Origin: a virus
Taxonomy: Duplodnaviria; Caudoviricetes
Direction: 5' to 3' (one strand)
IMG/VR virus record: IMGVR_UViG_3300035701_000039
Location: 1 to 55,692 of that record
Length of the DNA: 55,692 nucleotides
In this document: positions 601 through 51,476 of the stretch, piece by piece
How the letters are laid out: every line of letters starts with the position of its first letter
Position numbering within the stretch: the first letter of the stretch is position 1
Position numbers and translations under genes: made by a program
The notes under the pieces: model-generated
Databases searched by the model: none
What the model was told of the DNA's origin: nothing
The model's input: the letters and a program-made list of their open reading frames with translations, nothing else

Positions 601-945
601 ACGCCATATATAAGAAAAGATCTTCGTCCCCCAATAGATGACTTACTTGAACCTCTGATTCAGAGAATTAATGAGCTTATCAGTTATACCAAAACATCAT
701 ATCCGCACCTCTTTGAAGGCATGAAAGGGTTTAAGGAATCAGGAGGTATTAAGGATGAAAAAGAGTTAACTGGAGTCTTAACCTATATCGTGTTCAAACT
801 GCTTAGAAGATTCTATGCCAATGGAGGCTGGTATGAACAGATGGATGCGGAGAAGGTGGTTGACTCTGCCATAAGCGAATTTAAGAGAAGATTCCTTTAC
901 CCCTATGAAGACATGAAGATCCGAGACAACGGAGACGTCAAATAA
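601..945 (+). CDS. Conserved small viral protein (xPYI...EFxRR...PYEDxKIxxNGDV type, DUF6899-like), apparent ACG start
   Basis: The frame of ORF 721..945 is open back to 601 (ACG CCA TAT ATA = xPYI); in-frame TGA at 598-600; GGAGGTGA at 589-596. Confidence 0.7.
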   Translation, partial: TPYIRKDLRPPIDDLLEPLIQRINELISYTKTSYPHLFEGMKGFKESGGIKDEKELTGVLTYIVFKLLRRFYANGGWYEQMDAEKVVDSAISEFKRRFLYPYEDMKIRDNGDVK

Positions 946-1191
946 CTAACTGCAAAGATCGAAAGTCTTGCTCTTAATTACTTGGCAAGGACCGGTATAG
1001 CCGGTTGACTTTCCTCAGTTTCTTTCACTTCTCTTCGATAATGAGGTCATGATAAGGGTCCATCAGGGGAGTTAGATCGTCTCTAGAGGGTAAGATGCTC
1101 ATGTCCGTGCCACTGCCCGTCTTCCCGTTTGAGAGGCATACAAGTCACCATAGGACCCGTATGAGGAAAAGAACTGTACGCCGGACAAACA

Positions 1192-1409: not shown

Positions 1410-1659
1410 GTATGCTGGCTGTATGAGGCCGGAGCGAGAACGAACTGTCCGAGTGTATGTCAGATCCTCTAGAGGGAGTCCTGCACGGTGCGAATAGCCG
1501 AGTAGAGGCGGTACCTAAAATTTAGTCTTCTCGTATAGAAGTCCCATTTTTGGAAACGGTCTAACCTTCTTTCATAGAACTGTGAAAGTACATCCAAGGA
1601 GTGAAAGATTGGAATTGATGAATTGTATGACAACCGTCTATCTGTCAAACAGGTTAAGA

Positions 1660-1673
1660 GAAACCTTTAAATT
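1660..1673 (+). promoter_or_regulatory. Archaeal BRE/TATA promoter for the early operon
   Basis: GAAACC-TTTAAATT about 40 nt upstream of ATG 1715. Confidence 0.55.
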
Positions 1674-1714
1674 CTCCCTCTCCTCTGGCATACCGTACAA
1701 AGAGGAAAAGAACT

Positions 1715-2284
1715 ATGGAAAATCCAAAGACCCCACTGCCGGAAACAATCACCATTTGGCACTCTAGTCTACCGGAGAACAAAGAGTCAATTCTGAAGAA
1801 TGGTGTGACAATGGCCAAGTTCAATTTAGACGAACAACTTCAGATGATTGAGAAATCTAATGCCCTTAAGGGATCCAAAGAGCAAGCTAAGAGGAGATTA
1901 TTTGAGGCCTTTGATGAACCTTGCATTAGTGGTTTAGTCTGTTGTTCTGGTAGCAGGGAATACTCGATTCAGAATGGTCGAGCCGCTTTGGAAGTGAAAT
2001 ATTATCTTGATTGCAAAAACTTCCATGGTCCAGTTGCAGTCTTTAAAATTGTTCTTCCTCTTAGGATGCTCGAAGTTCTAACTCCAAATTATTATCGTTA
2101 TCTCATAACCAGATTCGAAGAACTCTGGGGAAAGGGTTGGTTCAAGGCGAGGATGTGGGAGGCCCGAGCGAAGAAGTGGAAGGGAATGAGTAATGTGGTC
2201 GCAACTTATGATCACTTTGTTTTGACTCATGTTCCACCAGAATATATAAAGGGAGTTGAGATAATTGAACAACCCGAAAACTAG
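1715..2284 (+). CDS. Putative ADP-ribosyltransferase-fold protein (Tpt1/KptA-like)
   Basis: N-terminal IWHSS...NKESILKNG resembles the yHgT..n..sI...Gl motif; C-terminal HVPPEYI resembles the Tpt1-like iPP motif. Confidence 0.5.
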   Translation: MENPKTPLPETITIWHSSLPENKESILKNGVTMAKFNLDEQLQMIEKSNALKGSKEQAKRRLFEAFDEPCISGLVCCSGSREYSIQNGRAALEVKYYLDCKNFHGPVAVFKIVLPLRMLEVLTPNYYRYLITRFEELWGKGWFKARMWEARAKKWKGMSNVVATYDHFVLTHVPPEYIKGVEIIEQPEN

Positions 2285-2825: not shown

Positions 2826-3229
2826 CCGGCTACTATCGAATAAGACTTCCAAGTAGGGACGAACAATTCATTGATGGCACAATGTTAGATCCTAGTAATG
2901 GGGACATTATCCTTAGGGAAGACAAGGATGAGATTTCAGAAGAGGACATTGAAGAAGTACTTAATCATGAATTCATTCACTTGGCGATTGGGGATCTAGA
3001 GGGCTATCTGGTTTCAGGGGCGATTGACAGCATTTCCGGCTGGATCTGTCTACCCGGAGAGAAGGCGCATCTAGCATTCATCAGTGAAAAGTTGGTGATA
3101 TTTCAACTTCCCCTTCTGCCGACTCTTAATAGGCTGGCCTCGACCGCTTGGGATAAGGTTTATAGGCGGGTTGAGCTCTCTAACTACGGTCGTAAAGTTA
3201 ACAAAAGAGGGATGAGAAATGACAGATAA
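2822..3229 (+). CDS. HExxH metallopeptidase-like protein
   Basis: VLNHEFIHLAI motif. Confidence 0.55.
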   Translation: MTGYYRIRLPSRDEQFIDGTMLDPSNGDIILREDKDEISEEDIEEVLNHEFIHLAIGDLEGYLVSGAIDSISGWICLPGEKAHLAFISEKLVIFQLPLLPTLNRLASTAWDKVYRRVELSNYGRKVNKRGMRNDR

Positions 3230-4874
3230 GGAAGAAAGAGGAATACCGGAAGAATATGTCCGAGGACAAATCTTCCAGATCCGAAATACCGATAAGAGAA
3301 AAGAATTTGTCAAGAAGGAACTGGAGAAGAGCCAGAAGATCAACGGTAAAGACGTCGAATTCTTTAGGGACGACGTTGGTTTCGTCCTCTTAGAGAAGGA
3401 GGCCAAGATCAGGTACAATACCGCCATGGTCCAAAGGGCCTTATCCGTCGCCGTCTTGAGTGGGAAGGCACCGAGAGAACTTAGGGAATTCTACTATACC
3501 CTGAGGACGACTCCGGAACTGGTTAAGCCCTTCGCCACCGGTAATGACGATGCAATCTATCCCCTGACCCTAAGAGCCATTTGTGACTTAGAGATCCTAT
3601 GCGACATTAACCGGGACCAGTTCACGATGGGCAACCTGAGCAAGGGGTTCATTTACTACTTCCATTCTCCGATCTTTGGTCAGAAGGAGAGGAAGATCAC
3701 CTTCACGGAAGTCATAGCCAGAAGCATCATGAAACCGGAGAAGGAAGAGGAGTGGCAGTGCGGGAACTGTGAGAACATCATCGTGGTGGAGAAGAACGCT
3801 GCAGCCCTGAGGATGGTAGAACTAGGTCTATCCGAATTCACCAACTCGATCATAGTGACAGTGGGTGGCAATTTCAACCGTGCCATTTGGGAACTGGCTT
3901 CTAGGTTCAAGGATTCCAAGAACATGATCTTCATGGCGGACGCTGACGCCTACGGGGTTGACATGCTCAGGACGATCCAAGCCGGGACTGAATCATCAAG
4001 ACACCTATCGTACAAATTCCCACCGTCCAGATACCCTAAGGTTTACTTGGCCGGCTTTTTCCCCTCGATCGGGGAAAGTCTAGGGCTACCAAACGACGTT
4101 GAGCAGAAGAGGCCCTTACAGAATCCATTCGTTAAGCAGAGGGTCAACTTCCTAATGAACCATGGCCTGTTAGACCAGAGGGACTATGACACTTGGGCGC
4201 GGGACAAGACCTATGAACTGGAATCTCTCTCGGCGGGATTTGAGAACGAGAAGGGTGAACCAATAGGTCTAGGCATTTATATTGTCGAATATATGAGGAT
4301 GTTCAATATCCCGGTTAAGCCTCCAATGCCTCCAGATGACCAGTTGAAGAAGGACTTTGACGAGGCGGCAAGGAAGGAACTGCAGAGGGAAATAGACGAG
4401 AAGATTGCCTATCCAAAATTCTTCTGGTCCTATTACAACTGGCTCACCGCTCTCAAGGAAGAACTGAAGACTAAGATCTACGACTCCCTACTCCCGAAGT
4501 ATGAAGAGGCCCTAGCCCAAATCGGACCGAAAGAAATCAAGTTTCATATCTGGAAGCAATTCGAAGAGGATCCTAAGCGGGCAAGCTACGACCTAGCCGC
4601 AATCGCCCATAAGATCAAGACCAAGTTCGACATAATCATTGACTGGGCACTGGAAAAGTTTGAGGAAGCTCTAGACGAGGCCAAGGAAGATTATGAGGGT
4701 CCGGAACCAAGGACTGACACGGAATTTACGCCAATCCACAATGAGGTTAACTATGATCCCAACGGATATGATCTAGTCTTGAAGAGGATCGGGGCGAAAG
4801 ATGAGGACGTCGTGAAGGTAAGACAGGCGTTATTGACGAGGTTCATTGATGATCCTCGGTTACGGAAGGATTGA
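3219..4874 (+). CDS. DNA topoisomerase VI subunit A / Spo11-like protein with C-terminal extension
   Basis: REFYY catalytic-Tyr motif, VVEK, TVGGN, Toprim DADAYG, ELESL. Confidence 0.9.
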   Translation: MTDKEERGIPEEYVRGQIFQIRNTDKRKEFVKKELEKSQKINGKDVEFFRDDVGFVLLEKEAKIRYNTAMVQRALSVAVLSGKAPRELREFYYTLRTTPELVKPFATGNDDAIYPLTLRAICDLEILCDINRDQFTMGNLSKGFIYYFHSPIFGQKERKITFTEVIARSIMKPEKEEEWQCGNCENIIVVEKNAAALRMVELGLSEFTNSIIVTVGGNFNRAIWELASRFKDSKNMIFMADADAYGVDMLRTIQAGTESSRHLSYKFPPSRYPKVYLAGFFPSIGESLGLPNDVEQKRPLQNPFVKQRVNFLMNHGLLDQRDYDTWARDKTYELESLSAGFENEKGEPIGLGIYIVEYMRMFNIPVKPPMPPDDQLKKDFDEAARKELQREIDEKIAYPKFFWSYYNWLTALKEELKTKIYDSLLPKYEEALAQIGPKEIKFHIWKQFEEDPKRASYDLAAIAHKIKTKFDIIIDWALEKFEEALDEAKEDYEGPEPRTDTEFTPIHNEVNYDPNGYDLVLKRIGAKDEDVVKVRQALLTRFIDDPRLRKD

Positions 4875-7846: not shown

Positions 7847-8412
7847 TGTTGGTCATCATAGAGGGAGTAGACGGTACAGGCAAGAGCACCTTAATAGACT
7901 CCTTGAAGAGGTCATTCTCTCGGACCGTCTATGTGTTCAATTTCTCATACCCCAAAAGCTGGGAAATGTTCCAAGAAGCGGCAATGGCCAGAGGAGAATA
8001 TTATGGGGCAATCAAGATTTTCAAGGTCATATTTGAGAAGGATCCTGATGCCGTCATAATCTGCGACAGGTTCCATCTTGGCGAATTCGCTTATGGACCT
8101 GTTATGAGGGGCTACCCGGAATGGTTGGCAGAAGAGGTTCTCAAAGTTGAAGACGAGATCCTTAAAGAGATCGGAAGGGATAACGTCAGGTTGATAATCA
8201 CAGGGGTGTCTAAACCGGAAGTAGCGATGAAGAGGTCTAATAGAACCGGAGAATACCTCAAGGACCTGAAGGAATATACGGAAGTCAATCTGAGATACTC
8301 TTTAGCTGCTGATAAAACCAAACTTCCATGGATAGTTCTTCAACCAGACTATCTTAATCGGGGACAGATGCTTAAACGGGCAATAGGGTTCATAACGGAG
8401 AAATTGACATGA
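7840..8412 (+). CDS. Deoxynucleoside monophosphate (thymidylate-like) kinase
   Basis: IIEGVDGTGKST P-loop; ICDRFH...YGPV. Confidence 0.9.
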   Translation: MVMLVIIEGVDGTGKSTLIDSLKRSFSRTVYVFNFSYPKSWEMFQEAAMARGEYYGAIKIFKVIFEKDPDAVIICDRFHLGEFAYGPVMRGYPEWLAEEVLKVEDEILKEIGRDNVRLIITGVSKPEVAMKRSNRTGEYLKDLKEYTEVNLRYSLAADKTKLPWIVLQPDYLNRGQMLKRAIGFITEKLT

Positions 8413-9374
8413 GAGTATTCAAAGGGAATAACGTGCCGGGCCTCTACGCCGACATTCTGAGAGAAATTCTCTTGGAAGGAAAAGAAGTGGGTCCTAGAGG
8501 TTTGAAGACGAAGGAACTTAGTCCGGTCTGTATAGAAGTGACGGATCCGAGAAGAAGGTTGTTCGGTCACCCGCACCGGAAGGATGTCAGCATTTTCACC
8601 TACATAGAAGGTCTTTGGATCCTAAGGCATGAGAATAAACCGGATAGATTGGTTCATTACGTTCCAGCAATGGCCAATTTTGTTAATGAAGAAACAGGGG
8701 AACTAGACGGGGCTTACGGTCCAGCTATAAGTACCCAATTGGATCAATGTTTTCAGAGACTTAAGGCGGATCCAGATACCAGACAAGCAGTAGTCATGAT
8801 CAATCAACCTCAACTTCATAGACTCCCAACGAAAGATTTTCCTTGCACCCTTACCTTTCAATTCCTACTTCGGGACGACTTTCTAGATCTGATCGTCAAT
8901 ATGAGGAGTCAAGATGCTTGGCTAGGTTTAATCTATGATACTGGAGAATTTCAGTGGTTTCAAGAGATAATGGCGGGCTGGCTTGGAGTGAATCTAGGGA
9001 GATACTATCATATTGATGGAAGCCTTCACCTCTATGAGAGGGATTGGAAGAAGGCACAAGAGGTTGTGGATTATGATTTCAACTTCGCCCTTTATGATCA
9101 AGCTGTAGTCCTAGATGCTCGGTTAGGAAAATTCGATTATGACCAAATTGAACGTCACATGGCCTTTTGGGAATATGCCTGCAGGAAAGGGGATTTCAAT
9201 TCGGTTGAAGAATGGGAAATTCATAACGATTTCTATATGAATTTGGCTGACATAATTATGGCTTACAATCTGCGACTTGAAGGGCACAAGGAAGAAGCCT
9301 ATGAAATAGTCAGACACAACAAAAGTGATTTAGGTTTAATCTATGAGACAAGGTGGAGAAGAAATGCCGAGTAA
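8409..9374 (+). CDS. Thymidylate-synthase-fold enzyme, probable dCMP (hydroxy)methylase
   Basis: GAYG, TRQA, DFPCT catalytic Cys, MRSQDAWLGLIYD (Asp where ThyA has Asn), SLHLYE. Confidence 0.85.
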   Translation: MRVFKGNNVPGLYADILREILLEGKEVGPRGLKTKELSPVCIEVTDPRRRLFGHPHRKDVSIFTYIEGLWILRHENKPDRLVHYVPAMANFVNEETGELDGAYGPAISTQLDQCFQRLKADPDTRQAVVMINQPQLHRLPTKDFPCTLTFQFLLRDDFLDLIVNMRSQDAWLGLIYDTGEFQWFQEIMAGWLGVNLGRYYHIDGSLHLYERDWKKAQEVVDYDFNFALYDQAVVLDARLGKFDYDQIERHMAFWEYACRKGDFNSVEEWEIHNDFYMNLADIIMAYNLRLEGHKEEAYEIVRHNKSDLGLIYETRWRRNAE

Positions 9375-19273: not shown

Positions 19274-19687
19274 ATGAGGTTGGATCCGAATAGCGTGATT
19301 AAGCGGCCTAGATTTTTGACTTCAACTCGAAGACCCGGGTATGATATAGACTTTCATCCTCGCGCTTTTGACAAACCTCTCGCATGTCGGGTTGGAAGAC
19401 ATCCTACTCTAAGAAGGATCATTGGTCCCGGTGGCATACCCCATCTCTATTGCCCCAAATGTGGTTCAAGCATTGGGGAAGGTCTGCATACCGGAACGTG
19501 GAGCAAAGACGACATAGACCGTTTGACGAAGATCAAGCAGGGATTATATTCGGCTCAGAAACCTAGGACGAAGAAAGAGATAATGAATGAGGCTTGGGAG
19601 AAGCACCAAGCATCGGCGGGTCAACGTAAGGAACGAATGGAAGCTTCGATTGAGAGGTTTGTAAAAGAGCGAATGCTCGATGAATGA
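19274..19687 (+). CDS. Zn-finger protein
   Basis: CxxxxH...CPKC; IIGPGG resembles IVGPDG in the upstream gene. Confidence 0.65.
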   Translation: MRLDPNSVIKRPRFLTSTRRPGYDIDFHPRAFDKPLACRVGRHPTLRRIIGPGGIPHLYCPKCGSSIGEGLHTGTWSKDDIDRLTKIKQGLYSAQKPRTKKEIMNEAWEKHQASAGQRKERMEASIERFVKERMLDE

Positions 19688-21455
19688 CTTTTCTTCTAAG
19701 CCTATTAAGTTTCTTTATTTTGAAATAGCTAGGCTTAGGACCCTCTACGATTCTAAACCAGAAATACGTGAGGCTATAATAGAACGGTATGGGCAGGTAG
19801 TGAAGGAACTTGATGGTAGAGGAGCCAAATGGTTCTGGGCACCTCATCTAATAGACCAATTCATTGACATCAAGAAGGCCTTTATTAAACCCAACAAGCC
19901 GGCATGGAGGATCTTTACTCCAGAAGAAGTCTTTGACATTTCCGGATTTGAACTTCCTGTTCTGGTTGACGTCAAGATAGATGGGATGAGGCTTCAGATC
20001 CATAATGATGCTGGGGTACAAATCTATTCTGAAGATGAGGGCCTGAACAAGACTCATAAATTCAAGGAACCTCTAGAGGACATTAAGAAACTGCCGGAAG
20101 GAACGATCCTAGACGCCGAAGGGGTTCTAGTCGCTGATGGACAGGTTCTTCATAGGACTAGTTTCATTGGTTACGTTAACGGGAAGGGGTTTGACGAGGA
20201 GAAGGACAAGCAGACTGAATTTTGGGTCTTTGACGTCCTCAGATGGGGAAATAAGGATCTTACCGATGAGCCATTATCAGTCCGGTTATCCTACCTAAAG
20301 AAGGTTCCGGAATGCAAGCACCTGAAGGTGTTCAAGGCCGGGGAAGAAGCTTTCATCTGTAAGACTAGAGAAGAGGTTCTAACCGCGGTCAAGAAGGTTG
20401 CAGGGAAGAAAGGATCAGAAGGGGCAATGATTAAACTCCTTTCCAGCACATACGTCAAGGACATTCATAATAAAGGCTGGATAAAACTCAAGAACCTCAA
20501 GGAGGTAGACTGTCTAGTAGTTGAGATTGAACAACCCAAACACCAGAAGGGTCCTTTAGAAGGCAAACCGGTTGAGGGAGTATTCAACTATCATGTGGCT
20601 GCTGGTCCATACCCGGAAGCAGATGGTAAGGTTCTTCTAGACAAGGTTTCAACTAAAGTCCGAGAGTATGAGGGGAAAGTCTATGCTCACCTCGGTAAGA
20701 CCTTTAATACCGAGATCAAGGCGAAGGTTGGGGACATAATAAGGGTCTGGTCACCGGAAATAAACAGGTATGAGGTTAAGGATACGAAACTTTATACTTA
20801 TGGAATCTATGAACCCAAGGTTCTGGAATGGGTTCACGAGAGGAATATACCGGATAGTCTGAACGTCCTCAATCGTTTGGCGGAACAGACTTCAGAATTA
20901 CATCCAAGAGAAGTTAATAAGGCTGGGGATTGGTGTGTAGATGGCGGAGGAAATTGGATCACGATTTCCGGTACTCATGTCTGCGTGGGTATTAAAGATC
21001 AAATGGAATTTCAAGGGTCCAACCCTATTCAGGAGACTCGAGTTCGAGCAGCTTTATCTAGACTACCTTTGGGAGATCGTAAAGACTTCAAAAGGGTTTA
21101 TATCCGGGATAGGTTGAATCTATCCGGATATGACGCCACTTTTAAGAGGGATGTTGATGGTTCTTCTTCCATGTTCGTGGCGAAAGAGACTTTGGAAGGT
21201 GAGGACTGGAACAATTTTTCTAATCACGTCATTTCTCACGAAGTAGGTCATAATGTATTCGTTAGAAATCTGACCGAAGATCAGTCTTCGGATTGGAGAA
21301 CTTTCTTCTATGACGCAAAAGATAGTTTTCCGTCCGAGCATTCGCAAATAAATCCGGATGAAGGGTTCGCTGAGGCCTATAGCAGATATCAAACTGGTTT
21401 GCCACTCGATCCCAAAATAAAGGATAAGATTGAGGGACTCGGGATAAAGAGATGA
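19680..21455 (+). CDS. ATP-dependent DNA ligase fused to a C-terminal zincin-like metallopeptidase
   Basis: KIDGMR (motif I), LDAEG (III), VFDVL (IIIa), EGAMIK (IV), WIKLK (V), OB-like region; then WITISGTH, HEVGH and EGFAEAY. Confidence 0.9.
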   Translation: MNDFSSKPIKFLYFEIARLRTLYDSKPEIREAIIERYGQVVKELDGRGAKWFWAPHLIDQFIDIKKAFIKPNKPAWRIFTPEEVFDISGFELPVLVDVKIDGMRLQIHNDAGVQIYSEDEGLNKTHKFKEPLEDIKKLPEGTILDAEGVLVADGQVLHRTSFIGYVNGKGFDEEKDKQTEFWVFDVLRWGNKDLTDEPLSVRLSYLKKVPECKHLKVFKAGEEAFICKTREEVLTAVKKVAGKKGSEGAMIKLLSSTYVKDIHNKGWIKLKNLKEVDCLVVEIEQPKHQKGPLEGKPVEGVFNYHVAAGPYPEADGKVLLDKVSTKVREYEGKVYAHLGKTFNTEIKAKVGDIIRVWSPEINRYEVKDTKLYTYGIYEPKVLEWVHERNIPDSLNVLNRLAEQTSELHPREVNKAGDWCVDGGGNWITISGTHVCVGIKDQMEFQGSNPIQETRVRAALSRLPLGDRKDFKRVYIRDRLNLSGYDATFKRDVDGSSSMFVAKETLEGEDWNNFSNHVISHEVGHNVFVRNLTEDQSSDWRTFFYDAKDSFPSEHSQINPDEGFAEAYSRYQTGLPLDPKIKDKIEGLGIKR

Positions 21456-22228
21456 AGAAGAAGATTTACTTAGATTCAAAATTCAACTCAGTTCCTAAAT
21501 CTGGGGCCAAATATGAGGTTGAATTAACCATAGAAGATGAACAGACAGTCGAGGAAAAATGGAAAATTCTGACTGAAAAGGACCGGGTCGCTAAGCAGGA
21601 TGAAGGCGGGGATGGAGGACATTGGGTCACGGTTAACGGACGACACATCTTCATCGGGGATGAGGAGCAGGGGAATTGGGAAGTCAATTATGAGAAGGTG
21701 TCTGGTTCAAGGCAGAAAGTCGGAGAGAAGACTTACCTTTACAATCAGGATTCAGATGCCTTTCCCGAAGAAGAAAAGAAGAAGATCAGTTCAGCCCTTT
21801 TACTAGAGGACAACAAGATTAAGAATAGATTTTCTTCTGTCCTCTTAACCAAAGGGAAGGACTATTTTGGAATGAATTGGAGGGAATTTGACGGTGAGAA
21901 ATGGGCTAACACCTTGGAAATTTCTAATTCGTCTCCTGAAGCCGTAATGACGATGGAGCATGAGTTCGGGCACGAATACACCAATTACGCCCGGGAAGAA
22001 GGATTGAATGAAGAATTCGAAACGGACTTTAAGAAGGCACGAAAAACTGACGGTTTAGATACAAGCGCATTTTCTCTTACCCCGGAACAGTCCAAGAAAG
22101 ATATAGATGAAGACATCGCTAATGCCTACGCCGCCTACGTCGTGGATCCAAAAGCCCTTAAAGAGGCCAGCCCCAATCGTTACGAAGCCATTAGGGGTCT
22201 GGTTGAGAAGGTGAGGGGTAAACCATGA
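21452..22228 (+). CDS. Zincin-like metallopeptidase with WVTVNGRH motif
   Basis: GGHWVTVNGRHIFI, HEFGH, EDIANAY, LKEASPNRY. Confidence 0.75.
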   Translation: MKKKIYLDSKFNSVPKSGAKYEVELTIEDEQTVEEKWKILTEKDRVAKQDEGGDGGHWVTVNGRHIFIGDEEQGNWEVNYEKVSGSRQKVGEKTYLYNQDSDAFPEEEKKKISSALLLEDNKIKNRFSSVLLTKGKDYFGMNWREFDGEKWANTLEISNSSPEAVMTMEHEFGHEYTNYAREEGLNEEFETDFKKARKTDGLDTSAFSLTPEQSKKDIDEDIANAYAAYVVDPKALKEASPNRYEAIRGLVEKVRGKP

Positions 22229-23634
22229 AGATAGAGAGGATCACCGAAGAAAAGATTGAGACGATCATGGTCTCAGATGAGAATTTCAATTTAGTCATTT
22301 ATGCCTCACCCGGGAAAATGAAGGACGAGGATATTGAGGGGATCATTGAGGATTATCGGCGAAGGAAAGAAACCAAAGGATTTTCTAAGGTTGAGAAGAA
22401 AGAATCTGATTCCATGTATCTACCTCGTCATTCTTGCATGCTCATCTGGTCCGGGGTCAAGACACTGATAGTGAAGGAGAAACACTTTGAAGGCATGCTC
22501 AAGAAGAAAATGAACCTCTGCGATGACAATTACAAATATGGGGACATCATTCTCACTCGGATGTTTGAGATGTCTAGGGAAGAAGTCGACAGGAGTAGGA
22601 AGAGGAGCAGGTTAACGGATCTGGACATGGAGGACTGGAAGGGAGCTAAAATCTTCTACGGGTATGACTTTGAATTCGAACCTTTAGAGGAACCGCAAGA
22701 GGTTAAGGTTCCACATGGCGCCCAAACCTTCTTTAATATCGAGAAGGCTGAAGGTCCTACCTTACCTGAATACGAGGGACTGGCTAAACCGGGTGAACCG
22801 TTACCAGACAAATATTACAAGTTCCATTCTAATGTCAAGGATCCTAAGTTCGTACTTCAGAGGCATTATCCGACTGGGAAGAAGGTGCCGATAAAACCGG
22901 GTGAAGAAGAACCTCAGATGTATAAGAGCTTCGTAGTCGAGTATGATGAGAAACACCCTGAGGCTTTGACCGGTCTAATGTCTGATCTGATAGACCAATA
23001 CGAGGAACTAGACGAGAAGGAACGGGTCAAGATCGAGAAGAGTACGTTTGGGGTCCTCTTCGAGGGTTTAGTGGTTAAGATCCGAGACCATTTGGATCTG
23101 AGGATGGAGATAAGCGATTCTAAATTAGTAGGTGTCACCATTCACCCACCGGTCCCGGGAGGAATAACGGCTTGGGACGCCTTTAAATCTCGCATGACTG
23201 GCGAAGAAAAGACTCAGGTCACGCCTAAGTACGAACACCCTCATCCTTGGCTGACTAGGGAAGGAGAATTAAGATTTCCAACGAGGCACAAGGAACCTCA
23301 AGAGGCCCATTACCTAGAAGTCGCTAGGATGGACATCATAGACACTGGACCGGTTAAGTTCGGGGTTCAGAGGGAAGACCTGCATGAATTCTTCTTCTAT
23401 GGGAAGATTTTAAAAGGCCGATGGGTGATAAGGAAGCTGAAGATAGGAACAGAAGCAGCTCATTGGGCTTGGTTGCTAATGAAACCATCCGACCAGAGAC
23501 CATTAGACCCTGTTCTGCATCGGGATAATGGGCACATTAAGATAGAACGAGTAGCTGAGCCAACGACAGAAGAACGTTCCCATATAGAAGAAGAGACTCA
23601 AGCGGCTAGGGCGGAAAGAGGACAGGAAATTTAG
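22225..23634 (+). CDS. ASCH-like domain + LigD-type 3'-phosphoesterase domain protein
   Basis: MYL...LIWSGVKTLIVK (ASCH-like); FVLQRH, HLDLRME, IDTG, FYGKILKGRW (LigD PE motifs). Confidence 0.8.
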   Translation: MKIERITEEKIETIMVSDENFNLVIYASPGKMKDEDIEGIIEDYRRRKETKGFSKVEKKESDSMYLPRHSCMLIWSGVKTLIVKEKHFEGMLKKKMNLCDDNYKYGDIILTRMFEMSREEVDRSRKRSRLTDLDMEDWKGAKIFYGYDFEFEPLEEPQEVKVPHGAQTFFNIEKAEGPTLPEYEGLAKPGEPLPDKYYKFHSNVKDPKFVLQRHYPTGKKVPIKPGEEEPQMYKSFVVEYDEKHPEALTGLMSDLIDQYEELDEKERVKIEKSTFGVLFEGLVVKIRDHLDLRMEISDSKLVGVTIHPPVPGGITAWDAFKSRMTGEEKTQVTPKYEHPHPWLTREGELRFPTRHKEPQEAHYLEVARMDIIDTGPVKFGVQREDLHEFFFYGKILKGRWVIRKLKIGTEAAHWAWLLMKPSDQRPLDPVLHRDNGHIKIERVAEPTTEERSHIEEETQAARAERGQEI

Positions 23635-23975
23635 GCTCTTATACCGTCGAAGGTTATTGTCAGGGCTATTTGAATCTTGAATTCTAACTGTAATAATTCC
23701 CTAATCCCTTCAGACGTTATGAAGTACTGATGTCGGAAACGATCTGGCTTCGTACGACCTAAACCCGGTCTGGTTCTAAGCCAAGGCAATTTTTCTAAAC
23801 TTGAGGATATGAAATTCTTCTTCTTCAATTCGGCTATGAGAGAATAGAAATGGCCTAAGGGGAAGTCGAATTGAAGGGCGGACATCTTCTTCCTGATCTG
23901 GTAACGAGTGATGTAAGGATGGTCCTTGAGCACCTTGAGGATTATGCATTTTTCTAGGATATACTTGTCTCTCAT
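23631..23975 (-). CDS. PadR-like winged-helix regulator
   Basis: ILKVL...YQIRKK...FYSLIAELKKKNFI...YFITSEG. Confidence 0.8.
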   Translation of the reverse strand: MRDKYILEKCIILKVLKDHPYITRYQIRKKMSALQFDFPLGHFYSLIAELKKKNFISSSLEKLPWLRTRPGLGRTKPDRFRHQYFITSEGIRELLQLEFKIQIALTITFDGIRA

Positions 23976-25063
23976 ACGTGGTACTTCTCGGGGTGAATGA
24001 ATAGGTTTATTATATGGGGTAAATGACTTAGGTCCTTAAAGTTATTGGAATTGAGACGGAGGATCCTGATGCCGAATGAACCAATGTACCTATCCCGTTC
24101 AGCGTCTCTCTCCTTCTGTCCCGGAATAGCAGTATGAAATATACCATCTACCTCAATTAGGAGCATTCGATCGAAGTCAAAGAAGTCCAGATGGTAGAAG
24201 GAACCCCTAGATTTAGATTTAAGCAAAGTGGACAATAAGGTGGCAATTCGCGCACAGAAGTTGAATAATGGACAATAATTCTTTCTGTGGTAATTTATAA
24301 ATTTCAAGCCATGATTCTCCCGTTTGACGTCCAAATCTATGATGGAAGACAAGAACTCTTGGATCTGTCGTCCCACATATTGAACATTCGCCGCCGAGAG
24401 TCTGGATAAGTTTAAGACGCATTTTCCTTTTAAATCTTCTTTCATTTTCTTGTTGTTTCGGAAGAATTTTTCTCTTATTCTTGGAGTAATATTCTCGTTT
24501 GTACTGTTTAAGCTTTTCTTTATTCTTGAGTCGCCATTTATGCTGCTGTTCTCGGTATTTATCCGGATACTTTGCCCGCCAACGATAGACAGCCGCCTTC
24601 CAGACTTCAGGGTGTTTCTGGTAATGTCTTCTATTTGCTTCACTTGCGGGCATGAATCGTTTCTCTCCGAACAACTCCTTAGATAGAGTAAAGTTAATTG
24701 GGTTATATAATCTTTACTAATTTTTGATGGGAATGGACAATTATGGATGAAATTGTTCTCCTCATTAAGGAGGACTAAAGCGGCGAAGGTGTATTCCTCT
24801 AGGGTGGACCAGCAGTTGATGTAATACCGTTTAGACACGTTCGAAGAATACTTGATGAAGGCCCGTTCCTTAGCTGAAGTCGGAGGCATTGGCCGCTTAA
24901 TCGCCTTCAAGAAGGCTCTGTAACCATTGAACCTGTGCATGATCATGTCATAGAGGAAAGGATCCTTCTTCTTGACCTTCTGGTATCTGGGCGAGTGATG
25001 TGGATCCGGGAATAGGGAAATGAAGATTTTCTTCAGTCTCTGTCTAGTCCAAGGATCATTCAT
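23972..25063 (-). CDS. DUF559 / Vsr-like endonuclease interrupted by a 510-bp in-frame insertion
   Basis: STLE...FIHNCPFPSK and SRGSFYHLDFF...IEVDGIFH...RDAERD...GIRILR flank the insert; likely start ATG 25063. Confidence 0.75.
   Translation of the reverse strand: MNDPWTRQRLKKIFISLFPDPHHSPRYQKVKKKDPFLYDMIMHRFNGYRAFLKAIKRPMPPTSAKERAFIKYSSNVSKRYYINCWSTLEEYTFAALVLLNEENNFIHNCPFPSKISKDYITQLTLLYLRSCSERNDSCPQVKQIEDITRNTLKSGRRLSIVGGQSIRINTENSSINGDSRIKKSLNSTNENITPRIREKFFRNNKKMKEDLKGKCVLNLSRLSAANVQYVGRQIQEFLSSIIDLDVKRENHGLKFINYHRKNYCPLFNFCARIATLLSTLLKSKSRGSFYHLDFFDFDRMLLIEVDGIFHTAIPGQKERDAERDRYIGSFGIRILRLNSNNFKDLSHLPHIINLFIHPEKYHV
24212..24721 (-). mobile_element. Promoter + HNH cassette inserted in the DUF559 gene
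   Basis: 510 bp between repeated Ser-Lys codons (TCAAAA / TCTAAA); TTATATAA at 24703-24710; HNH ORF fills the rest. Confidence 0.7.
24219..24674 (-). CDS. HNH homing endonuclease (nested, alternative frame)
   Basis: Basic helical N-terminus; LGGECSICG...FHH...LLCANCH. Confidence 0.88.
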   Translation of the reverse strand: MFGEKRFMPASEANRRHYQKHPEVWKAAVYRWRAKYPDKYREQQHKWRLKNKEKLKQYKREYYSKNKRKILPKQQENERRFKRKMRLKLIQTLGGECSICGTTDPRVLVFHHRFGRQTGESWLEIYKLPQKELLSIIQLLCANCHLIVHFA

Positions 25064-25226
25064 TTCTCTCTTTAAACTTCTTGACAAATTCCATCATGCC
25101 CTTAAAGATGTCTAACTTCTTTGTCAGGCCCAATAACTCTCCGATGTACCAGAAGTCTGAATACTCCTTCGTGGTCAGGTCTAGAAGAAGCTTCTTCCCC
25201 TTAGGTTTCTTATCATTAGGGTTCAA
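25056..25226 (-). CDS. Small RHH-like regulator
   Basis: 3' part of ORF 25056..25346; TTG at 25226 after GGAGGGAG; KKLLLDLT followed by two helices. Confidence 0.55.
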   Translation of the reverse strand: MNPNDKKPKGKKLLLDLTTKEYSDFWYIGELLGLTKKLDIFKGMMEFVKKFKERNE

Positions 25227-25386
25227 GTTTAGCTCCCTCCTTAACCTTCTTCTTGATGTAGTCACGAAAGGCCTCTTCTGCGGCATCATAAAGTTTAGTC
25301 TTAGCCACGCTCGAAGTAGACCTGAATTTCGTCCATAGGACATCATCCACTTCGACCATTACCTTTTTCCTAGTCAACTTAGACAA
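25216..25386 (-). CDS. Ribbon-helix-helix protein (56 aa, not in ORF track)
   Basis: MSKLTRKKVMVEVDDVLWTKFRS...LYDAAEEAFRDYI. Confidence 0.75.
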   Translation of the reverse strand: MSKLTRKKVMVEVDDVLWTKFRSTSSVAKTKLYDAAEEAFRDYIKKKVKEGAKLEP

Positions 25387-25387
25387 C

Positions 25388-25451
25388 TCTTAATAGTATT
25401 AAAGCTCAGACTAGTTAATAAACTTTTAAATTTTGATGATAGGGTATATTA
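25388..25451. promoter_or_regulatory. Divergent AT-rich promoter region (RHH operon vs protease-capsid operon)
   Basis: Adjacent, oppositely oriented TATA-like boxes TTTATTAA (-) and TTTTAAAT (+). Confidence 0.6.
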
Positions 25452-26720
25452 ATGTTCGGACAGTCTATGTATTCGTACAACACAGGGAGTACAATGTCAG
25501 AACTAAATGGATGTCCAGACACCCTTCTCAATTCTGAGTTGGAAATATACAAACATCCATTGGTTCAATCCCTGTTAGATGCCCTTCCCCAACCTCTTAC
25601 TCGCACTCCTTGGTCATTCACTTTTCCCATTTCTAAGAAGATGGAAGAAGAAGGAAAAATCATTATCGCTGGTTATGCTTCCGTAGAGGTCATTGACAGC
25701 CAGAACGAACTTATACCCATACCGGTTCTAAAGGAGGCTTGGGTAAAGTTCAAGGCTAATAAGTATTTTGCTACTGGGTCACTCATGCATTCTAACATTC
25801 CTGTCATTAGGATCCTAGACGAGTACAAAGATTCTAAGGGTCAGGTCTGGAAGAGTGAAGTCGACGACACCGGTCTCTTTATCGTGGCCGAAGTCAGGAA
25901 CGATATCGAGAAGGGGTTGCAGACGATTGAACTTATCAAGGATAATAAACTTACCGGGTTCAGTATAGGAGGGGAAGCCCTAGCTTCTTCTATCATCTGT
26001 GAAGGGAAATGCTACACTAGGATAGACAAGATGGAATTACACGAAATAGCGGTTGTGGACCGTCCGGCAAATCAACCTTCCGTCTTTACCATAGTCAAGT
26101 CGGATAGGTTGAGAAAATTGGCGGAATTGACTGAAGCCCTTCCTGATCTAATCATCAGTCCGGGAGTAGCCAAGGTCGCAGGTTCAGTAGCCGAATTAGG
26201 AGAAGGTCACGATTTCGACCTGATCATAACCGCTTCTGAAGGTTCATTTGTTGACCGGGCAATTCAAACCCGGATTTTTAATGAGCTGAGAAGAAAAGGG
26301 AAAGAAGACCTTTGGAAGAGTCTACATGTCATTCACGAACCGGAAGGTCTAGGACCCTTTACCGATCACTATGACCTGTTCGATCTTGTCCTGTTAAGGT
26401 CTACTCCCCATAAAAGGGACATGACCTACACCGGAGGGGAAAAGACTAAGAACTCCCTCAAGGACAAACTCGTAGAGGAATTCAAACTTAATCCGGGTCA
26501 AGCTGGTTTATTGATCAACTGGCTTGGCGATGCCGCTAAGAAATTAGTGGCTGTTGGGACAAAGAAGGAAAAATTCGAGTGTCCCATTCTAGTCTCAGTA
26601 GAGAAACTAGATGAGGCAATAGACAAGGCCAATTCAAGTAGGATAATGAGAAAATCCATATCTCATCTTGATGAGGCAATTTCAAAGTTATCTCTTAACC
26701 GAGAAACTATAACCTCGTAA
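25452..26720 (+). CDS. HK97-type prohead protease fused to a Pol-beta-superfamily nucleotidyltransferase-like domain
   Basis: IAGYASVEVIDSQNE, LMH, GFSIGG, EIAVVDRPAN; then VAGSVAELGEGHDFDLII. Confidence 0.88.
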   Translation: MFGQSMYSYNTGSTMSELNGCPDTLLNSELEIYKHPLVQSLLDALPQPLTRTPWSFTFPISKKMEEEGKIIIAGYASVEVIDSQNELIPIPVLKEAWVKFKANKYFATGSLMHSNIPVIRILDEYKDSKGQVWKSEVDDTGLFIVAEVRNDIEKGLQTIELIKDNKLTGFSIGGEALASSIICEGKCYTRIDKMELHEIAVVDRPANQPSVFTIVKSDRLRKLAELTEALPDLIISPGVAKVAGSVAELGEGHDFDLIITASEGSFVDRAIQTRIFNELRRKGKEDLWKSLHVIHEPEGLGPFTDHYDLFDLVLLRSTPHKRDMTYTGGEKTKNSLKDKLVEEFKLNPGQAGLLINWLGDAAKKLVAVGTKKEKFECPILVSVEKLDEAIDKANSSRIMRKSISHLDEAISKLSLNRETITS

Positions 26721-43030: not shown

Positions 43031-44014
43031 GTGTCTGGTAGTTTGAAAGCGGCAGTCTTCTATGGAACGTACGGGCATTGGACTCAAAGTCTTTTGAATG
43101 CTGGCATTCCATTAGCCTATCATTACCAACCTAGACTCGACATCGACCCGGATAATGAACAGGTCGGTTGGATTAGCGATCCCCTAGCGAAACAGATCCT
43201 ATTCATGAATTTTCCAAATGTTGAATTTAGGCCTCCTTCCGCGAATGACGAACCCTATGACCTGATAGTCGGTTCGCCTCCTTGTGTAGGTTTTTCAAGG
43301 GCTAATCCCAAGGCCAGACCAGATCATCCTCTCAACAAACACACCTTCAACTTTTTCAAGTGGGTAGTCCTTAACGGACCCAAACATTTTCTGATGGAGA
43401 TGGTTCCGGGCATTCTCAAGTCAGGAGATCCTATCCTCGGCCCCGGCATATTCAGTCAGTGTCTCAATCTTATCAGGAATTATTATCAATGGGATTATGC
43501 TGTCATGAATGCTGCCGATTATGGAGCTGCCCAGACCAGAGAACGTCTTTACATCTGGGGACGGAGAAGGGGTCAAGAACACTTGGAATCCCCATTGGCC
43601 ACCCTTGAGAAAAGAGGATGTTCATCTATCCAAGAGGTCCTTAATCCAGACTTAATTAGGTATTGGGATGGAAGAAAACCTGATGGTAAACAACTTCTCA
43701 ACCTAATCGGTAAGAATGGGAAGAGGATTGCTGGCGCTTGGGGAAGTCTTACAGAAAAGAAGATTGGAAATAGGACCCTTAAACCAGATGGTCTTATGTT
43801 TACCATTACAAGTACGAGTGTGAGGGACTGTCTTCATTATTCGACTCAACGCCTTCTATCAATACCCGAATTGAAGGTCCTCATGGGCTTTCCGGTTGGC
43901 TACTTTATCCCTCCGGTCAACGCGGGTTTAGCCTCTAAGATCGTGGCCTCGGGCGTGGACATCAGATTCGCCTCCTACTTACTGGAACATATCAAGATGG
44001 TGTTGGAAGCATGA
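43031..44014 (+). CDS. C5-cytosine DNA methyltransferase (divergent)
   Basis: GSPPCVGFS (IV), MEMVPG (VI), AQTRER (VIII), RLLS..ELKVLMGFP (IX); motifs I and X degenerate. Confidence 0.88.
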   Translation: MSGSLKAAVFYGTYGHWTQSLLNAGIPLAYHYQPRLDIDPDNEQVGWISDPLAKQILFMNFPNVEFRPPSANDEPYDLIVGSPPCVGFSRANPKARPDHPLNKHTFNFFKWVVLNGPKHFLMEMVPGILKSGDPILGPGIFSQCLNLIRNYYQWDYAVMNAADYGAAQTRERLYIWGRRRGQEHLESPLATLEKRGCSSIQEVLNPDLIRYWDGRKPDGKQLLNLIGKNGKRIAGAWGSLTEKKIGNRTLKPDGLMFTITSTSVRDCLHYSTQRLLSIPELKVLMGFPVGYFIPPVNAGLASKIVASGVDIRFASYLLEHIKMVLEA

Positions 44015-46196: not shown

Positions 46197-46712
46197 TTGG
46201 TGGAGAGGATGTTAATGTCCAAACAAGAGAAAAGAAAGAATTTCCCTACGAAGATTATAGAGGAAGTCTTTGAGGAACAAGGCCGGCAATGTTCTAAGTG
46301 TGATAAATCCCTACTCTATGGTTATCATGCCCATCACAAGGACGGGGACAATACCAATATCCAGAAAGAGAATTGTCAACTCCTCTGTCCCGGATGCCAT
46401 GGAGGGGAACAGTATAAGACTCTTCTGGAACAAAAGAAGGCCGCTATAGTCGACTTAGACAAACTGATCCTTACCGGGACAGAGAACAAGGCGTCAGGAG
46501 CAACTATAGAAAAGTTACTGGATGCCATCAAGATGAAATTAAGTCTTCAGAGGCAGGTCATGGACGATCCACCATTAGAGGTTCCGAGTGGTGTCAAAGC
46601 GGAGACATATATAACCGTCATGGAACATGGCATAAAGGAGTACGAGAAGGGGATCAAAGAGGGCATCCTCAAAGGGATTGAAATAGCCAAGGAACTAATG
46701 AAGAAGGTTTGA
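46197..46712 (+). CDS. HNH endonuclease with helical C-terminus
   Basis: CSKC...AHHKDG..N...NCQLLCPGCH. Confidence 0.85.
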   Translation: MVERMLMSKQEKRKNFPTKIIEEVFEEQGRQCSKCDKSLLYGYHAHHKDGDNTNIQKENCQLLCPGCHGGEQYKTLLEQKKAAIVDLDKLILTGTENKASGATIEKLLDAIKMKLSLQRQVMDDPPLEVPSGVKAETYITVMEHGIKEYEKGIKEGILKGIEIAKELMKKV

Positions 46713-46713
46713 G

Positions 46714-46950
46714 ATGGGTTCATCTGAGTCTTCCAGTTCCATAATTCCTAAGGAGGCCACTAGATGTCTGCGTGACGGAGGCATCCTTGTCGAACTTGAG
46801 ACGTACTTGGAACAGAGGACTGGTTCAGACGAGGTTTGGGTTAAGAGAACATGCTCAACCTGTTCAAAAATCTATATCAGTCCGGTCACTGTTTACCCGA
46901 TGAAAGAGGAAAGTACCGACCCCGGTAAAGGATCATTGAGGTGGAAATAA
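46714..46950 (+). CDS. Zn-ribbon protein
   Basis: CLRD...CSTC. Confidence 0.55.
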   Translation: MGSSESSSSIIPKEATRCLRDGGILVELETYLEQRTGSDEVWVKRTCSTCSKIYISPVTVYPMKEESTDPGKGSLRWK

Positions 46951-48038
46951 TGGTCAAGAAGAAAGAAGAGGAAAAGGATCCTAAGAAGTTAGAGAATGGT
47001 TCCAAGATAAAGGATAAACCGACCGACGAAAAGACGCCGGCAGACCATGAGGAGGACGTTACCAGTCCGGCCATGAGAAGGTTAGAGGACCTTCCCGGAA
47101 TAGGACCCAAGACCGCCGATAAACTTCGAGAATTAGGTTATACTCTAGTCGGGGTCGCTACCGGTAGAGCAGATGAAATTGCAGCAGAGATGAAGATTTC
47201 TTTCGTCATGGCTAAGTCGTGGGTTACAGCGGCGCAAGAAGCCCTTCTCACCAAGATGAAGCTTAAGACGGCTACGGATCAAGATAGGGAAAAGAAGATT
47301 AGACAGCAGTTCATTAAGACTGGTTCTTCGATCTTCAACGACCTAATAGGAGGAGGATTTCCTACTATGGCCACGACCGGTCTAAGCGGAAGGTTCGCTA
47401 CTGGGAAGACACAGGCGTCTTTTGACGGAGTAGTTGACTGTCTAACCCGTCTGAATAGAAAGGTCGTCTACATAGAGACGGAACCTAATACGTTCAGCCT
47501 TGACCGGCTCAAACAGATAGCTAAATGTCGGAAGGTAGAGGTGAATTGGGATAACCTCTTCGTCTGCGAGTCCGACCAGATACCGACCGCCAAGGCGCAG
47601 TTCCTCCAGTATAAGGTCGTCCAGAAGGCCCTAGAGAAGGGAGAGGATATTGGCCTTGTCGTGGTTGATTCCTTCACCGCTAAGTTCAGGCCGGGTTATT
47701 CCAGAAGGGAGATGTTGCCGGTGAGGACGAGAGAATTTACCGAACACTTTCTCCTTATAGACTACCTCGCCGCCCGGTATAATATAGCATGGGTTTTGAC
47801 CTGTCAGGTCATAGGGGCGCCGGATCCGGGTCAGAGTCTAGGGATCAAGGTTAAGACTGGAGACTCGTTCTATCCTGTCGGTGGAGAATTTCTGCTCCAT
47901 TCAGTCAATACATGGGTGGGACTGCAGCAGATAAAGACTGAATTGTGGCGTGCGACCTTATACGACTCGAGTTACCTAGCCAGACAGTCTAGAGACTTCA
48001 TGTTGTCACCTTCGGGGATCATAAATGCACCAGAATAG
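46941..48038 (+). CDS. radA: RadA recombinase
   Basis: LEDLPGIGPKTADKL HhH, GRFATGKTQ Walker A, YIETE, LVVVDS Walker B, PVGG..L.H. Confidence 0.93.
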   Translation: MEIMVKKKEEEKDPKKLENGSKIKDKPTDEKTPADHEEDVTSPAMRRLEDLPGIGPKTADKLRELGYTLVGVATGRADEIAAEMKISFVMAKSWVTAAQEALLTKMKLKTATDQDREKKIRQQFIKTGSSIFNDLIGGGFPTMATTGLSGRFATGKTQASFDGVVDCLTRLNRKVVYIETEPNTFSLDRLKQIAKCRKVEVNWDNLFVCESDQIPTAKAQFLQYKVVQKALEKGEDIGLVVVDSFTAKFRPGYSRREMLPVRTREFTEHFLLIDYLAARYNIAWVLTCQVIGAPDPGQSLGIKVKTGDSFYPVGGEFLLHSVNTWVGLQQIKTELWRATLYDSSYLARQSRDFMLSPSGIINAPE

Positions 48039-51034: not shown

Positions 51035-51476
51035 AAAGAATGAAAGACCACGGATCGAGGTTGGCATTTCATCTCCATTTAGTCAGGGGAACGTTTGTTC
51101 GGAAAAGGAAAGGGAGTTCAGGCTTAGAGAACTCGAAGAAGAGATTAAAACAGGTTGGTTAGATAAAGAAATCGTGCCTTATATTAAACGGATTAACCTA
51201 TATCCTTTTCTAGTCACAACCCAATCCTGCTGTGGACACGGAGAAAACCCGATGACAGGAAGACGGGCTCATATTGATTTCAGAAGTCTTTTATCAGAAA
51301 CAGACACTATAAATAAGATTTCGAGGCCATTCGATTCTAAAAGGAACCCTTCAGATTCCGCCCTCGAATTGGTGATTGAACCTTACGGTATAAGATACCT
51401 TCTCTGGTTGAGAAATGATGCTTGGAAGGAGCAATTAGAGGATTTCATATCCGTTCTAAGAGAGGTTAAGTATTGA
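51015..51476 (+). CDS. TYW3/Taw3-like protein
   Basis: LDKEI...IN...VTTQSCCGH resembles the TYW3 iD..I...iN...TTSSCSGR motif. Confidence 0.65.
   Translation: MVIYMIKKNERPRIEVGISSPFSQGNVCSEKEREFRLRELEEEIKTGWLDKEIVPYIKRINLYPFLVTTQSCCGHGENPMTGRRAHIDFRSLLSETDTINKISRPFDSKRNPSDSALELVIEPYGIRYLLWLRNDAWKEQLEDFISVLREVKY

Follow-up and report, generated by a model that had tools for sequence, protein, structure and literature searches.

A gene on the minus strand of a sediment virus contains a mobile insertion that carries its own HNH endonuclease gene in a different reading frame, and that leaves the frame of the invaded gene open from end to end. The virus is represented by the IMG/VR record IMGVR_UViG_3300035701_000039 (Duplodnaviria; Caudoviricetes), which is complete, with direct terminal repeats; its entire length of 55,692 bp is the window analyzed here, to which all coordinates refer (Table 1). 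We propose that the insertion is probably a homing HNH cassette of a hidden, out-of-frame type, lodged in a gene for a Vsr-like/DUF559 nuclease and tolerated in a beta-hairpin turn of the nuclease by read-through and dual coding. An earlier sequence-only reading of the window had named a selfish element tolerated through dual coding as one of several possibilities. It is the one that the coexistence of empty and filled alleles, flank tracts of the kind expected from co-conversion, a family of free-standing HNH genes, and an improbably open frame now favor.

The insertion is visible by comparison with alleles that lack it. A scan of viral contigs with the protein of the invaded gene returned five relatives, three of which, namely L003 and L002 (98%) and L004 (69%), span the full query within 567 to 600 nt; when aligned as DNA, all three are missing one and the same block. 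With open reading frame (ORF) lengths of 1116 nt for the filled and 603 nt for the empty gene, the net length of this block is 513 nt. The sequence-only reading was therefore right about the existence of an insertion, while its estimate of 510 bp was one codon short of the length given by the alignment with these three alleles. A second scan contributed two further empty alleles (L023, 56%; L024, 51%), such that the insert-free alleles it had suggested looking for now number five in viral contigs, plus one insert-free contig in a sediment sequencing run (X2, see below). When 1.84 billion representatives were searched exhaustively with a profile, 29 matched, and among these the insert is covered by the window's own protein only; seven of the 29 (128 to 200 amino acids [aa]) are insert-free and align to both sides of the insert in two stretches. 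At the protein level, the empty alleles share a conserved FPS-PK-GSYY, and the filled allele reads FPS-K...(insert)...SR-GSFY. The PK of the empty allele is thus replaced in the filled one, by K after the left junction and by SR at the right junction.

Filled alleles also exist outside the window. Scanning metagenomes with the HNH protein, we found two more of them, L008 (99%) and L009 (97%), whose host ORFs are open over 371 and 370 aa, respectively. The insert of L009 differs from that of the window at 4 of 513 bases, but the two genes differ at 44 sites in their C-terminal part. This part is of the L002 type in L009 (no differences past base 81) and of the L003 type in the window; therefore, one same insert sits in two allele backgrounds, each of which also exists empty. 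Moreover, when all three filled alleles are compared with both empty ones (L002 and L003), they have in common eight substitutions in the 43 nt left of the insert and seven in the 21 nt right of it. Beyond these tracts, the window and L003 are identical over a further 317 nt on the left and differ at three sites on the right. Flank tracts that are so sharply bounded match the pattern that would be expected from co-conversion during homing.

Empty and filled alleles also occur side by side in sediment. In run X2, one contig crosses both junctions (24108-24800) and carries the insert, and another joins position 24190 to 24729, skipping 538 nt with 25 other letters between them. The latter amounts to a net change of -513 nt and reads as the empty allele. 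The insert is also present in a 55,690-nt contig from run X3 and in a 2,752-nt contig from X4, and a contig from X5 extends over the 3′ junction. Taken together, the empty and filled alleles, the two backgrounds and the flank tracts establish, at the level of sequence comparison, that the insertion is mobile.

The cargo of the insertion is, as first noticed, a 151-aa ORF in another frame on the same strand. It occupies 456 of the 513 nt, in the third frame, leaving ∼57 nt. Five HNH endonuclease families of the PHROGs database match its product (phrog_2255 at E=8.5e-12, phrog_3106 at 1.2e-10, the weakest at 2.6e-4), and tblastn retrieved 34 phage records with genes annotated as HNH endonuclease (best E=3e-6). 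The arrangement CxxC ... HH ... CxxCH represents the HNH zinc and catalytic motif of the beta-beta-alpha-metal fold, and the translation shows it in full (CSIC ... FHH ... CANCH), in alignment with a second HNH-like ORF of the window. Atlas searching led to viral clusters, one of which has PF01844 in 41% of its members, a lead only. A word-based homologue search with the HNH protein returned seven candidates, none of which scored, and scanning viral contigs gave a single relative, 25% identical.

Relatives of the nested ORF are free-standing genes, such as a 157-aa ORF in L012 and a 180-aa ORF in L011. Two free-standing HNH genes, both on the minus strand, occur in L014, the record of the empty allele L002, at 760..1191 (143 aa) and 1462..1842 (126 aa); the pair lies close together, adjoining a tail-fibre-like gene, and the 126-aa member is 40% identical to the nested HNH protein. 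The second HNH-like ORF of the window (46197..46712, plus strand, 171 aa) is free-standing as well. It matches PF01844 with 15.2 bits, below the cut-off, is 30% identical to the nested protein over the metal-binding motif, and contains 14 stops in its own +1 frame. These viruses seem to carry several such HNH genes.

Turning to the invaded gene, its start is more likely the ATG at 25063 (363 aa) than the upstream TTG, because the database copy of the protein (P0001) begins at residue 9. The nuclease domain makes up the C-terminal half of the gene. Pfam DUF559 (PF04480) matches with 27.2 bits against a cut-off of 20.6, aligning residues 298-350 to profile positions 44-93 of 109, which lie wholly past the insert; the part of the protein before the insert gives no Pfam DUF559 match by itself. 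In an AlphaFold2 model of the empty allele L003 (mean predicted local distance difference test [pLDDT] 84), a helical N-terminal domain is followed by a C-terminal alpha/beta domain, for which the nearest compact structures found by Foldseek are the catalytic domain of the homing endonuclease I-Bth0305I (3r3p, TMt 0.75), a DUF559-like protein (3hrl, TMt 0.59) and Vsr (1cw0, TMt 0.45). The assignment as a DUF559/Vsr-like nuclease is supported by the fold as well as by a profile score that exceeds the curated cut-off. That the insert splits the DUF559 domain, as the first reading had it, is borne out by the insert-free homologues and the fold but not by Pfam, whose match begins past the insert.

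The same model of the empty allele places the insertion point in a turn (residues 121-125) between two strands (residues 114-120 and 126-133). When the filled protein is modeled, the flanks keep their secondary structure with pLDDT values of ∼72 to 94, and residues 123-295 all fall below 50. A hairpin turn would be a plausible location for a tolerated loop. A gene split into separately translated ORFs was also considered and rejected, as the host ORF is continuous at 371 aa.

The property that sets this insertion apart is its open host frame. As the sequence-only reading had observed, there is no host-frame stop in the window's insert, that is, none in 171 codons, and the same holds for L008 and L009; these three are the filled copies in which the open frame was checked, the differences of the copies from runs X3 to X5 being listed in part. 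The HNH frame is open too, and 14 stops fall in the one frame left over, counted within the HNH ORF. Relative to HNH, the host frame is +1, so a host-frame stop needs an HNH codon that ends in TA or TG followed by a codon that starts with A or G, a situation that can arise at Leu, Ile, Val and Met codons only. Of the 12 at-risk codon pairs of this kind in the HNH gene, none makes a stop. Given the HNH protein and the codon usage of the genome, the probability of an open host frame is 7.3e-5. Synonymous shuffling, which had been proposed as a check, left the frame open in 3/20,000 random versions under genome usage and in 335/20,000 (1.7%) when the synonymous codons of the HNH gene itself were permuted.

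The codons at the critical positions point the same way. Leu codons that precede a codon starting with A or G are CTT or CTC in eight of eight cases, compared with two of six for the other Leu codons (Fisher p=0.015) and a genome-wide share of 32%. Similarly, the sole Met-Arg pair uses CGT, in a genome in which AGR accounts for 72% of Arg codons. Free-standing relatives all have stops in the corresponding frame (5/5, with 5 to 14 each), at least one of them unavoidable in 4/5, and not a single one of 749 windows of 151 codons from the 49 ORFs of the genome is open in +1. Read as one line of evidence rather than several, these figures make it improbable that the host frame is open by chance; it owes its openness to codon choice at the at-risk sites.

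Two sequence signals may serve the expression of the nested gene. The first, TTATATAA, is preceded by a purine-rich stretch and could act as the HNH promoter; the second, GGAGAG, is a candidate ribosome-binding signal of HNH, and a GGAG, GAGG or GGTG motif is found at -16..-4 in 24/49 ORFs of this genome. Scans for sigma-70 promoters (3 versus 3.7 in shuffles) and intrinsic terminators (1 versus 1.8) stayed at shuffle level, and inspection by eye of the region between 24713 and 24653 showed no X XXY YYZ heptamer at which a -1 frameshift might take ribosomes from the host frame to that of HNH. Around TTATATAA, the insert forms a local hairpin at its 5′ end (AGUAAAG ... CUUUACU, 24685..24717, minus strand), which is present in both the minimum-energy and the centroid folds.

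We envisage the following course of events. The HNH protein would be made from the internal start (GGAG-N9-ATG), perhaps with its own TATA-like promoter, and would cut insert-free alleles in co-infecting genomes, after which repair from a filled allele would copy the cassette together with some 20 to 45 bp of flank per side. The element would stay in the RNA and in the protein, its length being a multiple of three and the HNH codons keeping the host frame free of stops. Ribosomes would then read the host gene through, producing a nuclease with a 171-residue unstructured loop, and would reach the stop that overlaps the start of the next gene. Selection for read-through may act on the function of the host protein or on the expression of the coupled downstream gene.

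Several observations weigh against this proposal. With respect to the nuclease, the conserved Asp of the LDFF motif lies only five residues past the insert, and because of this proximity, the insert may well inactivate the enzyme; the catalytic-looking E/D residues of the family are not invariant in the protein alignment either. As for the HNH protein, Pfam HNH (PF01844) matches at E=0.9 only, with 10.2 bits against a cut-off of 21.4, a sequence search of the PDB gave chance-level matches only (merlin and others, E of 0.12 or worse), and Pfam assigned no HNH family to the relatives in L011 and L012, the latter matching Endonuclease_7 at E=0.0049, below the cut-off. The first reading gave the HNH gene its own promoter; TTATATAA is indeed present, but it is one motif at chance frequency, occurring as a single copy in the genome where 0.97 are expected, with at least one copy in 60/100 shuffles. 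The codon statistic is post hoc, applied to a finding that was selected for its open frame. The filled copies are ∼99% alike, with six variable sites in 513 nt, which are synonymous at three in the HNH frame and at one in the host frame and none of which creates a stop; six sites are too few to test selection or long-term persistence of the frame. Lastly, it is from the absence of known signatures that the insert is presumed to escape splicing.

Among the alternatives, the one that survives best concerns what the read-through is good for. The nuclease might be dead and the open frame selected for the translation of the downstream PadR-like gene or for mRNA stability. Start-to-stop overlaps join three genes of the minus-strand cluster (25063/25056; 23975/23972), and the ATGA in which the host-gene stop overlaps the PadR-like start suggests translational coupling. 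The location of the insert five residues from the LDFF Asp and a host-frame peptide devoid of confident structure would fit as well, as would the variable sites, five of six being nonsynonymous in the host frame versus three of six in the HNH frame. On the other hand, the insert occupies a hairpin turn and leaves the predicted fold of both flanks intact, and nothing separates this scenario from a retained function of the host protein. Since it invokes the same element and the same read-through, it is a variant of our proposal and no true alternative; in the specific form of a dead nuclease, we regard it as possible but unlikely.

Another explanation is chance: the invaded gene would be dispensable and would have been destroyed when a homing HNH gene inserted into it, the length and open frame of the insert being accidental. 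The first reading had likewise allowed for a chance open frame in a dead gene, which the codon statistics disfavor, with the reservation that the finding was picked for being open. Further points can be made for it: +1 is the easiest frame to be open, given that stops arise at Leu, Ile, Val and Met codons only, and this K/R/E-rich HNH protein, with its 12 at-risk pairs, has the lowest density of such pairs (0.079 per aa) among six HNH genes compared. In addition, permuting its own codons opened the frame at the 1.7% level given above, and the host gene family is sparse. Yet the probability under genome codon usage stands before a further factor of one-third for the length, all free-standing relatives have stops and most of them an unavoidable one, and the choice of Leu codons is specific to the sites at risk. 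Independent cases with the same architecture and phase have also been published, as far as described in the text of PMC11855218. We consider an accident of this kind improbable.

Removal of the insert from the mRNA, either through self-splicing or through the archaeal splicing endonuclease acting on a relaxed bulge-helix-bulge (BHB) motif, was the first reading's other suggestion, in the form of a noncanonical archaeal mRNA intron. HNH genes are often carried in group I introns, the virus has replication genes of archaeal type (RadA/Rad51, family B DNA polymerase, ATP-dependent ligase, Topo VI-A-like Toprim protein), and a 7-bp helix between the insert ends is possible. This pairing of the RNA ends (AGUAAAG with CUUUGCU), noted from the start, does exist in the sequence; the minimum-energy fold, however, pairs AGUAAAG with the nearby CUUUACU instead. 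A canonical BHB consists of two 3-nt bulges separated by a 4-bp helix. Of 121 x 121 splice-site pairs scanned for it (14,641), six passed a loose filter versus 3.64 in shuffles, and none of the six lies at borders that would restore the gene. In 23500-25600, Rfam matched four times, at chance level, and none of the families matched at E up to 10 was an intron. The minimum free energy of the insert plus flanks is -119.8 kcal/mol compared with -129.1 kcal/mol for shuffles (z=+1.37), with 19 of 20 shuffles being at least as stable. Taken with the Pfam results described below, these scans uphold the first reading in finding no canonical BHB, group I core or intein ends, and they speak against the intron it had proposed. 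Moreover, only ∼57 nt lie outside the HNH ORF, and an intron would account for neither the length nor the stop-free host frame, needing neither a multiple of three nor freedom from stops. We thus judge it very unlikely that the insert is an RNA intron. Excision that leaves no known signature, be it from RNA lacking a canonical BHB or from protein lacking a Hint domain, would mean that the Pro-to-Ser change at the right junction is required by the mechanism and did not merely hitch-hike with the flank, and seems to us about as remote.

Removal at the protein level, by an intein-like or other self-excising insert, would suit an in-frame insert followed by a Ser where the empty alleles have Pro, a change also reported for the ShiLan domain discussed below (in the text of PMC11855218), but it is hardly credible for a host-frame peptide that matches no Pfam family at E up to 10 (hence no Hint domain) and no PHROG family, has pLDDT values below 50 throughout, begins and ends with Lys rather than with the Cys/Ser ... 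His-Asn of inteins, of which only the following Ser fits, and leaves the endonuclease to another frame.

Table 1. Features of the window discussed in the text.
Feature	Position	Strand	Remarks
Mobile insertion	24212..24724	-	513 nt = 171 codons net; absent from close alleles; borders ambiguous by a few bases because the flanks changed too
HNH endonuclease ORF	24219..24674	-	151 aa from TTG; 144 aa from ATG 24653; stop ends 7 nt before the insert end
Host gene	23972..25087	-	371 aa from TTG 25087; 363 aa from ATG 25063; helical N-terminal domain and Vsr-like/DUF559 nuclease domain
TTATATAA, possible archaeal TATA box	24703..24710	-	29 nt upstream of TTG and 50 nt upstream of ATG of the HNH ORF
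GGAGAG, Shine-Dalgarno-like	24663..24668	-	9 nt upstream of ATG 24653
Upstream ORF	25056..25346	-	96 aa; own stop overlaps the host-gene ATG at 25063; conserved C-terminus also in L003 (ORF lists, alignment)
Downstream PadR-like gene	23631..23975	-	ATG overlaps the host-gene stop (ATGA); Pfam PadR 18.7 bits, below the cut-off of 27
Topo VI-A/Spo11-like Toprim protein	3219..4874	+	archaeal-type replication set
Thymidylate synthase	8409..9374	+	
ATP-dependent DNA ligase	19680..21455	+	archaeal-type replication set
C5 cytosine methylase	43031..44014	+	
RadA/Rad51-type recombinase with helix-hairpin-helix motif	46941..48038	+	
Family B DNA polymerase	51473..54028	+	archaeal-type replication set

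Nearly all genes of the virus lie on the plus strand, the small minus-strand cluster with the invaded gene being flanked by a 469-aa ORF and by the gene for the prohead protease. Besides the archaeal-type replication set, this tailed virus encodes a capsid protein that is SU10-like and an S78 prohead protease. Searches with RadA mostly found metagenome proteins, including more than 100 relatives on contigs of viral size (40 to 60 kb); the nearest named cellular relatives are a Bathyarchaeota RadA (30%) and a 57% match labelled as a Caldisericum metagenome-assembled genome (MAG). A scan of genome contigs with the host-protein family gave a single weak match, in a Melainabacteria MAG, which is uninformative as to the host of the virus. 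From its gene content, an archaeal host seems likely.

The surroundings of the insertion show further signs of exchange. Contigs of all four runs X2 to X5 lose their match to the window at 25100/25101, from where they continue with other sequence, and the upstream ORF differs between the window and L003 as well; because of these differences, we place a recombination boundary directly upstream of the invaded gene. On the other side, the adjoining 469-aa gene (22225..23634, plus strand) is undivided in both the window and L008, forming a single ORF. L003 (4941..6986, minus strand) has the halves of this gene in two ORFs (340 and 335 aa) with an extra segment between them that contains an HEFGH motif, and L009 resembles the L003 type at this gene, making this a second presence/absence polymorphism right beside the HNH insertion. 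Elsewhere, one relative of the viral RadA (P0127, 291 aa) contains the LAGLIDADG domains PF00961 and PF14528 and probably represents a copy with an intein.

The usual view is that homing endonuclease genes persist within other genes by hiding in self-splicing introns or inteins. HNH endonucleases encoded in group I introns, such as I-HmuI, occupy conserved sites in phage genes and show co-conversion of flanks. The present element shares with them an HNH gene at a conserved site of a phage gene and the flank co-conversion, but there is no ribozyme here (no Rfam match, ∼57 nt outside the ORF, no excess structure). Archaeal BHB introns are found in mRNAs too, for instance that of cbf5, and would parallel our case in the possibly archaeal setting and the insertion into a protein-coding gene; they differ by the BHB, which is lacking at gene-restoring borders here, and BHB introns are not known to carry an endonuclease gene. 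A third comparison concerns free-standing homing endonuclease genes inside genes, studied for mobE in nrdA and under the name of 'fractured genes'. In these, the host gene is reportedly broken into two ORFs whose products reassemble. Our locus resembles mobE/nrdA in having a free-standing HNH-type gene in a coding gene without an intron, and differs in its continuous host frame. The examples meant are mobE in nrdA of an Aeromonas phage (PMC3045599) and the 'fractured genes' (PMC2677866).

The closest parallel is the ShiLan domain, as presented in the text of Arsenault, Gosselin & Gogarten 2025 (PMC11855218). This is a disjointly distributed insertion in DNA methylases of mycobacteriophages that contains no host-frame stop. 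Its HNH gene lies in the third frame, starts 18 bp into the insert and ends inside the final four bases of it. According to the same text (PMC11855218), there is no intron or intein signature, the low-information host-frame peptide is predicted to loop out, Ser or Thr replaces Pro after the insert, and a second such element resides in phage Pacc40. For ShiLan too, retention of the insert in mRNA and protein is a proposal rather than an experimental result (section 4.4 of PMC11855218).

Measured against that description, the element reported here is alike in its partial distribution among alleles, the in-frame, stop-free insert, and the third-frame HNH gene that fills nearly all of it and stops near its end; alike, too, are the missing intron and intein signatures, the domainless, low-confidence host-frame peptide, and the Ser/Thr for Pro after the insert. 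The differences lie in the host gene, a Vsr-like/DUF559 nuclease instead of a methylase, in the virus, an uncultured sediment virus with archaeal-type replication genes instead of an actinophage, and in the HNH protein, 151 aa instead of 195 aa; the likeness is one of architecture. There is no Mycobacterium phage in the 15 tblastn rows listed for the nested HNH protein nor among the organism names of the 34 records. In sum, as far as the published description extends, the present element has every computationally testable ShiLan feature, in the same relative phase but in another gene and another virus lineage.

A related arrangement was reported in a 2026 preprint (10.64898/2026.09.14.751524), which describes an out-of-frame endonuclease inside a true intein. 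Common to both systems are an endonuclease in an overlapping frame of an in-frame insertion and the coexistence of filled and empty alleles; for that system, selection is further described as purifying on the frame of the endonuclease and as relaxed on that of the host. There, however, the insert comprises splicing domains and a LAGLIDADG endonuclease, whereas no Hint domain is found here.

Beside introns and inteins, these elements would represent a third way for a homing endonuclease gene to survive inside another gene, namely, to be read through as a harmless loop with the endonuclease in an overlapping frame, a proposal hitherto based on one group of mycobacteriophages (PMC11855218). The locus described here represents this solution again, with the relative frame unchanged, and the gene concerned is an unrelated one that belongs to a sediment virus whose replication genes are of archaeal type. 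By analogy, we regard it as a further member of the kind described once before, in 2025. Going by a term search of the text of PMC11855218, whose supplements may list closer cases, our analysis adds to that description a test of codon choice, the flank co-conversion tracts, and the coexistence of alleles in a natural sample. Should the arrangement prove general, such elements would be systematically missed by gene callers and by surveys of inteins and introns, and they would provide a natural case of selection acting on one frame only to avoid stops.

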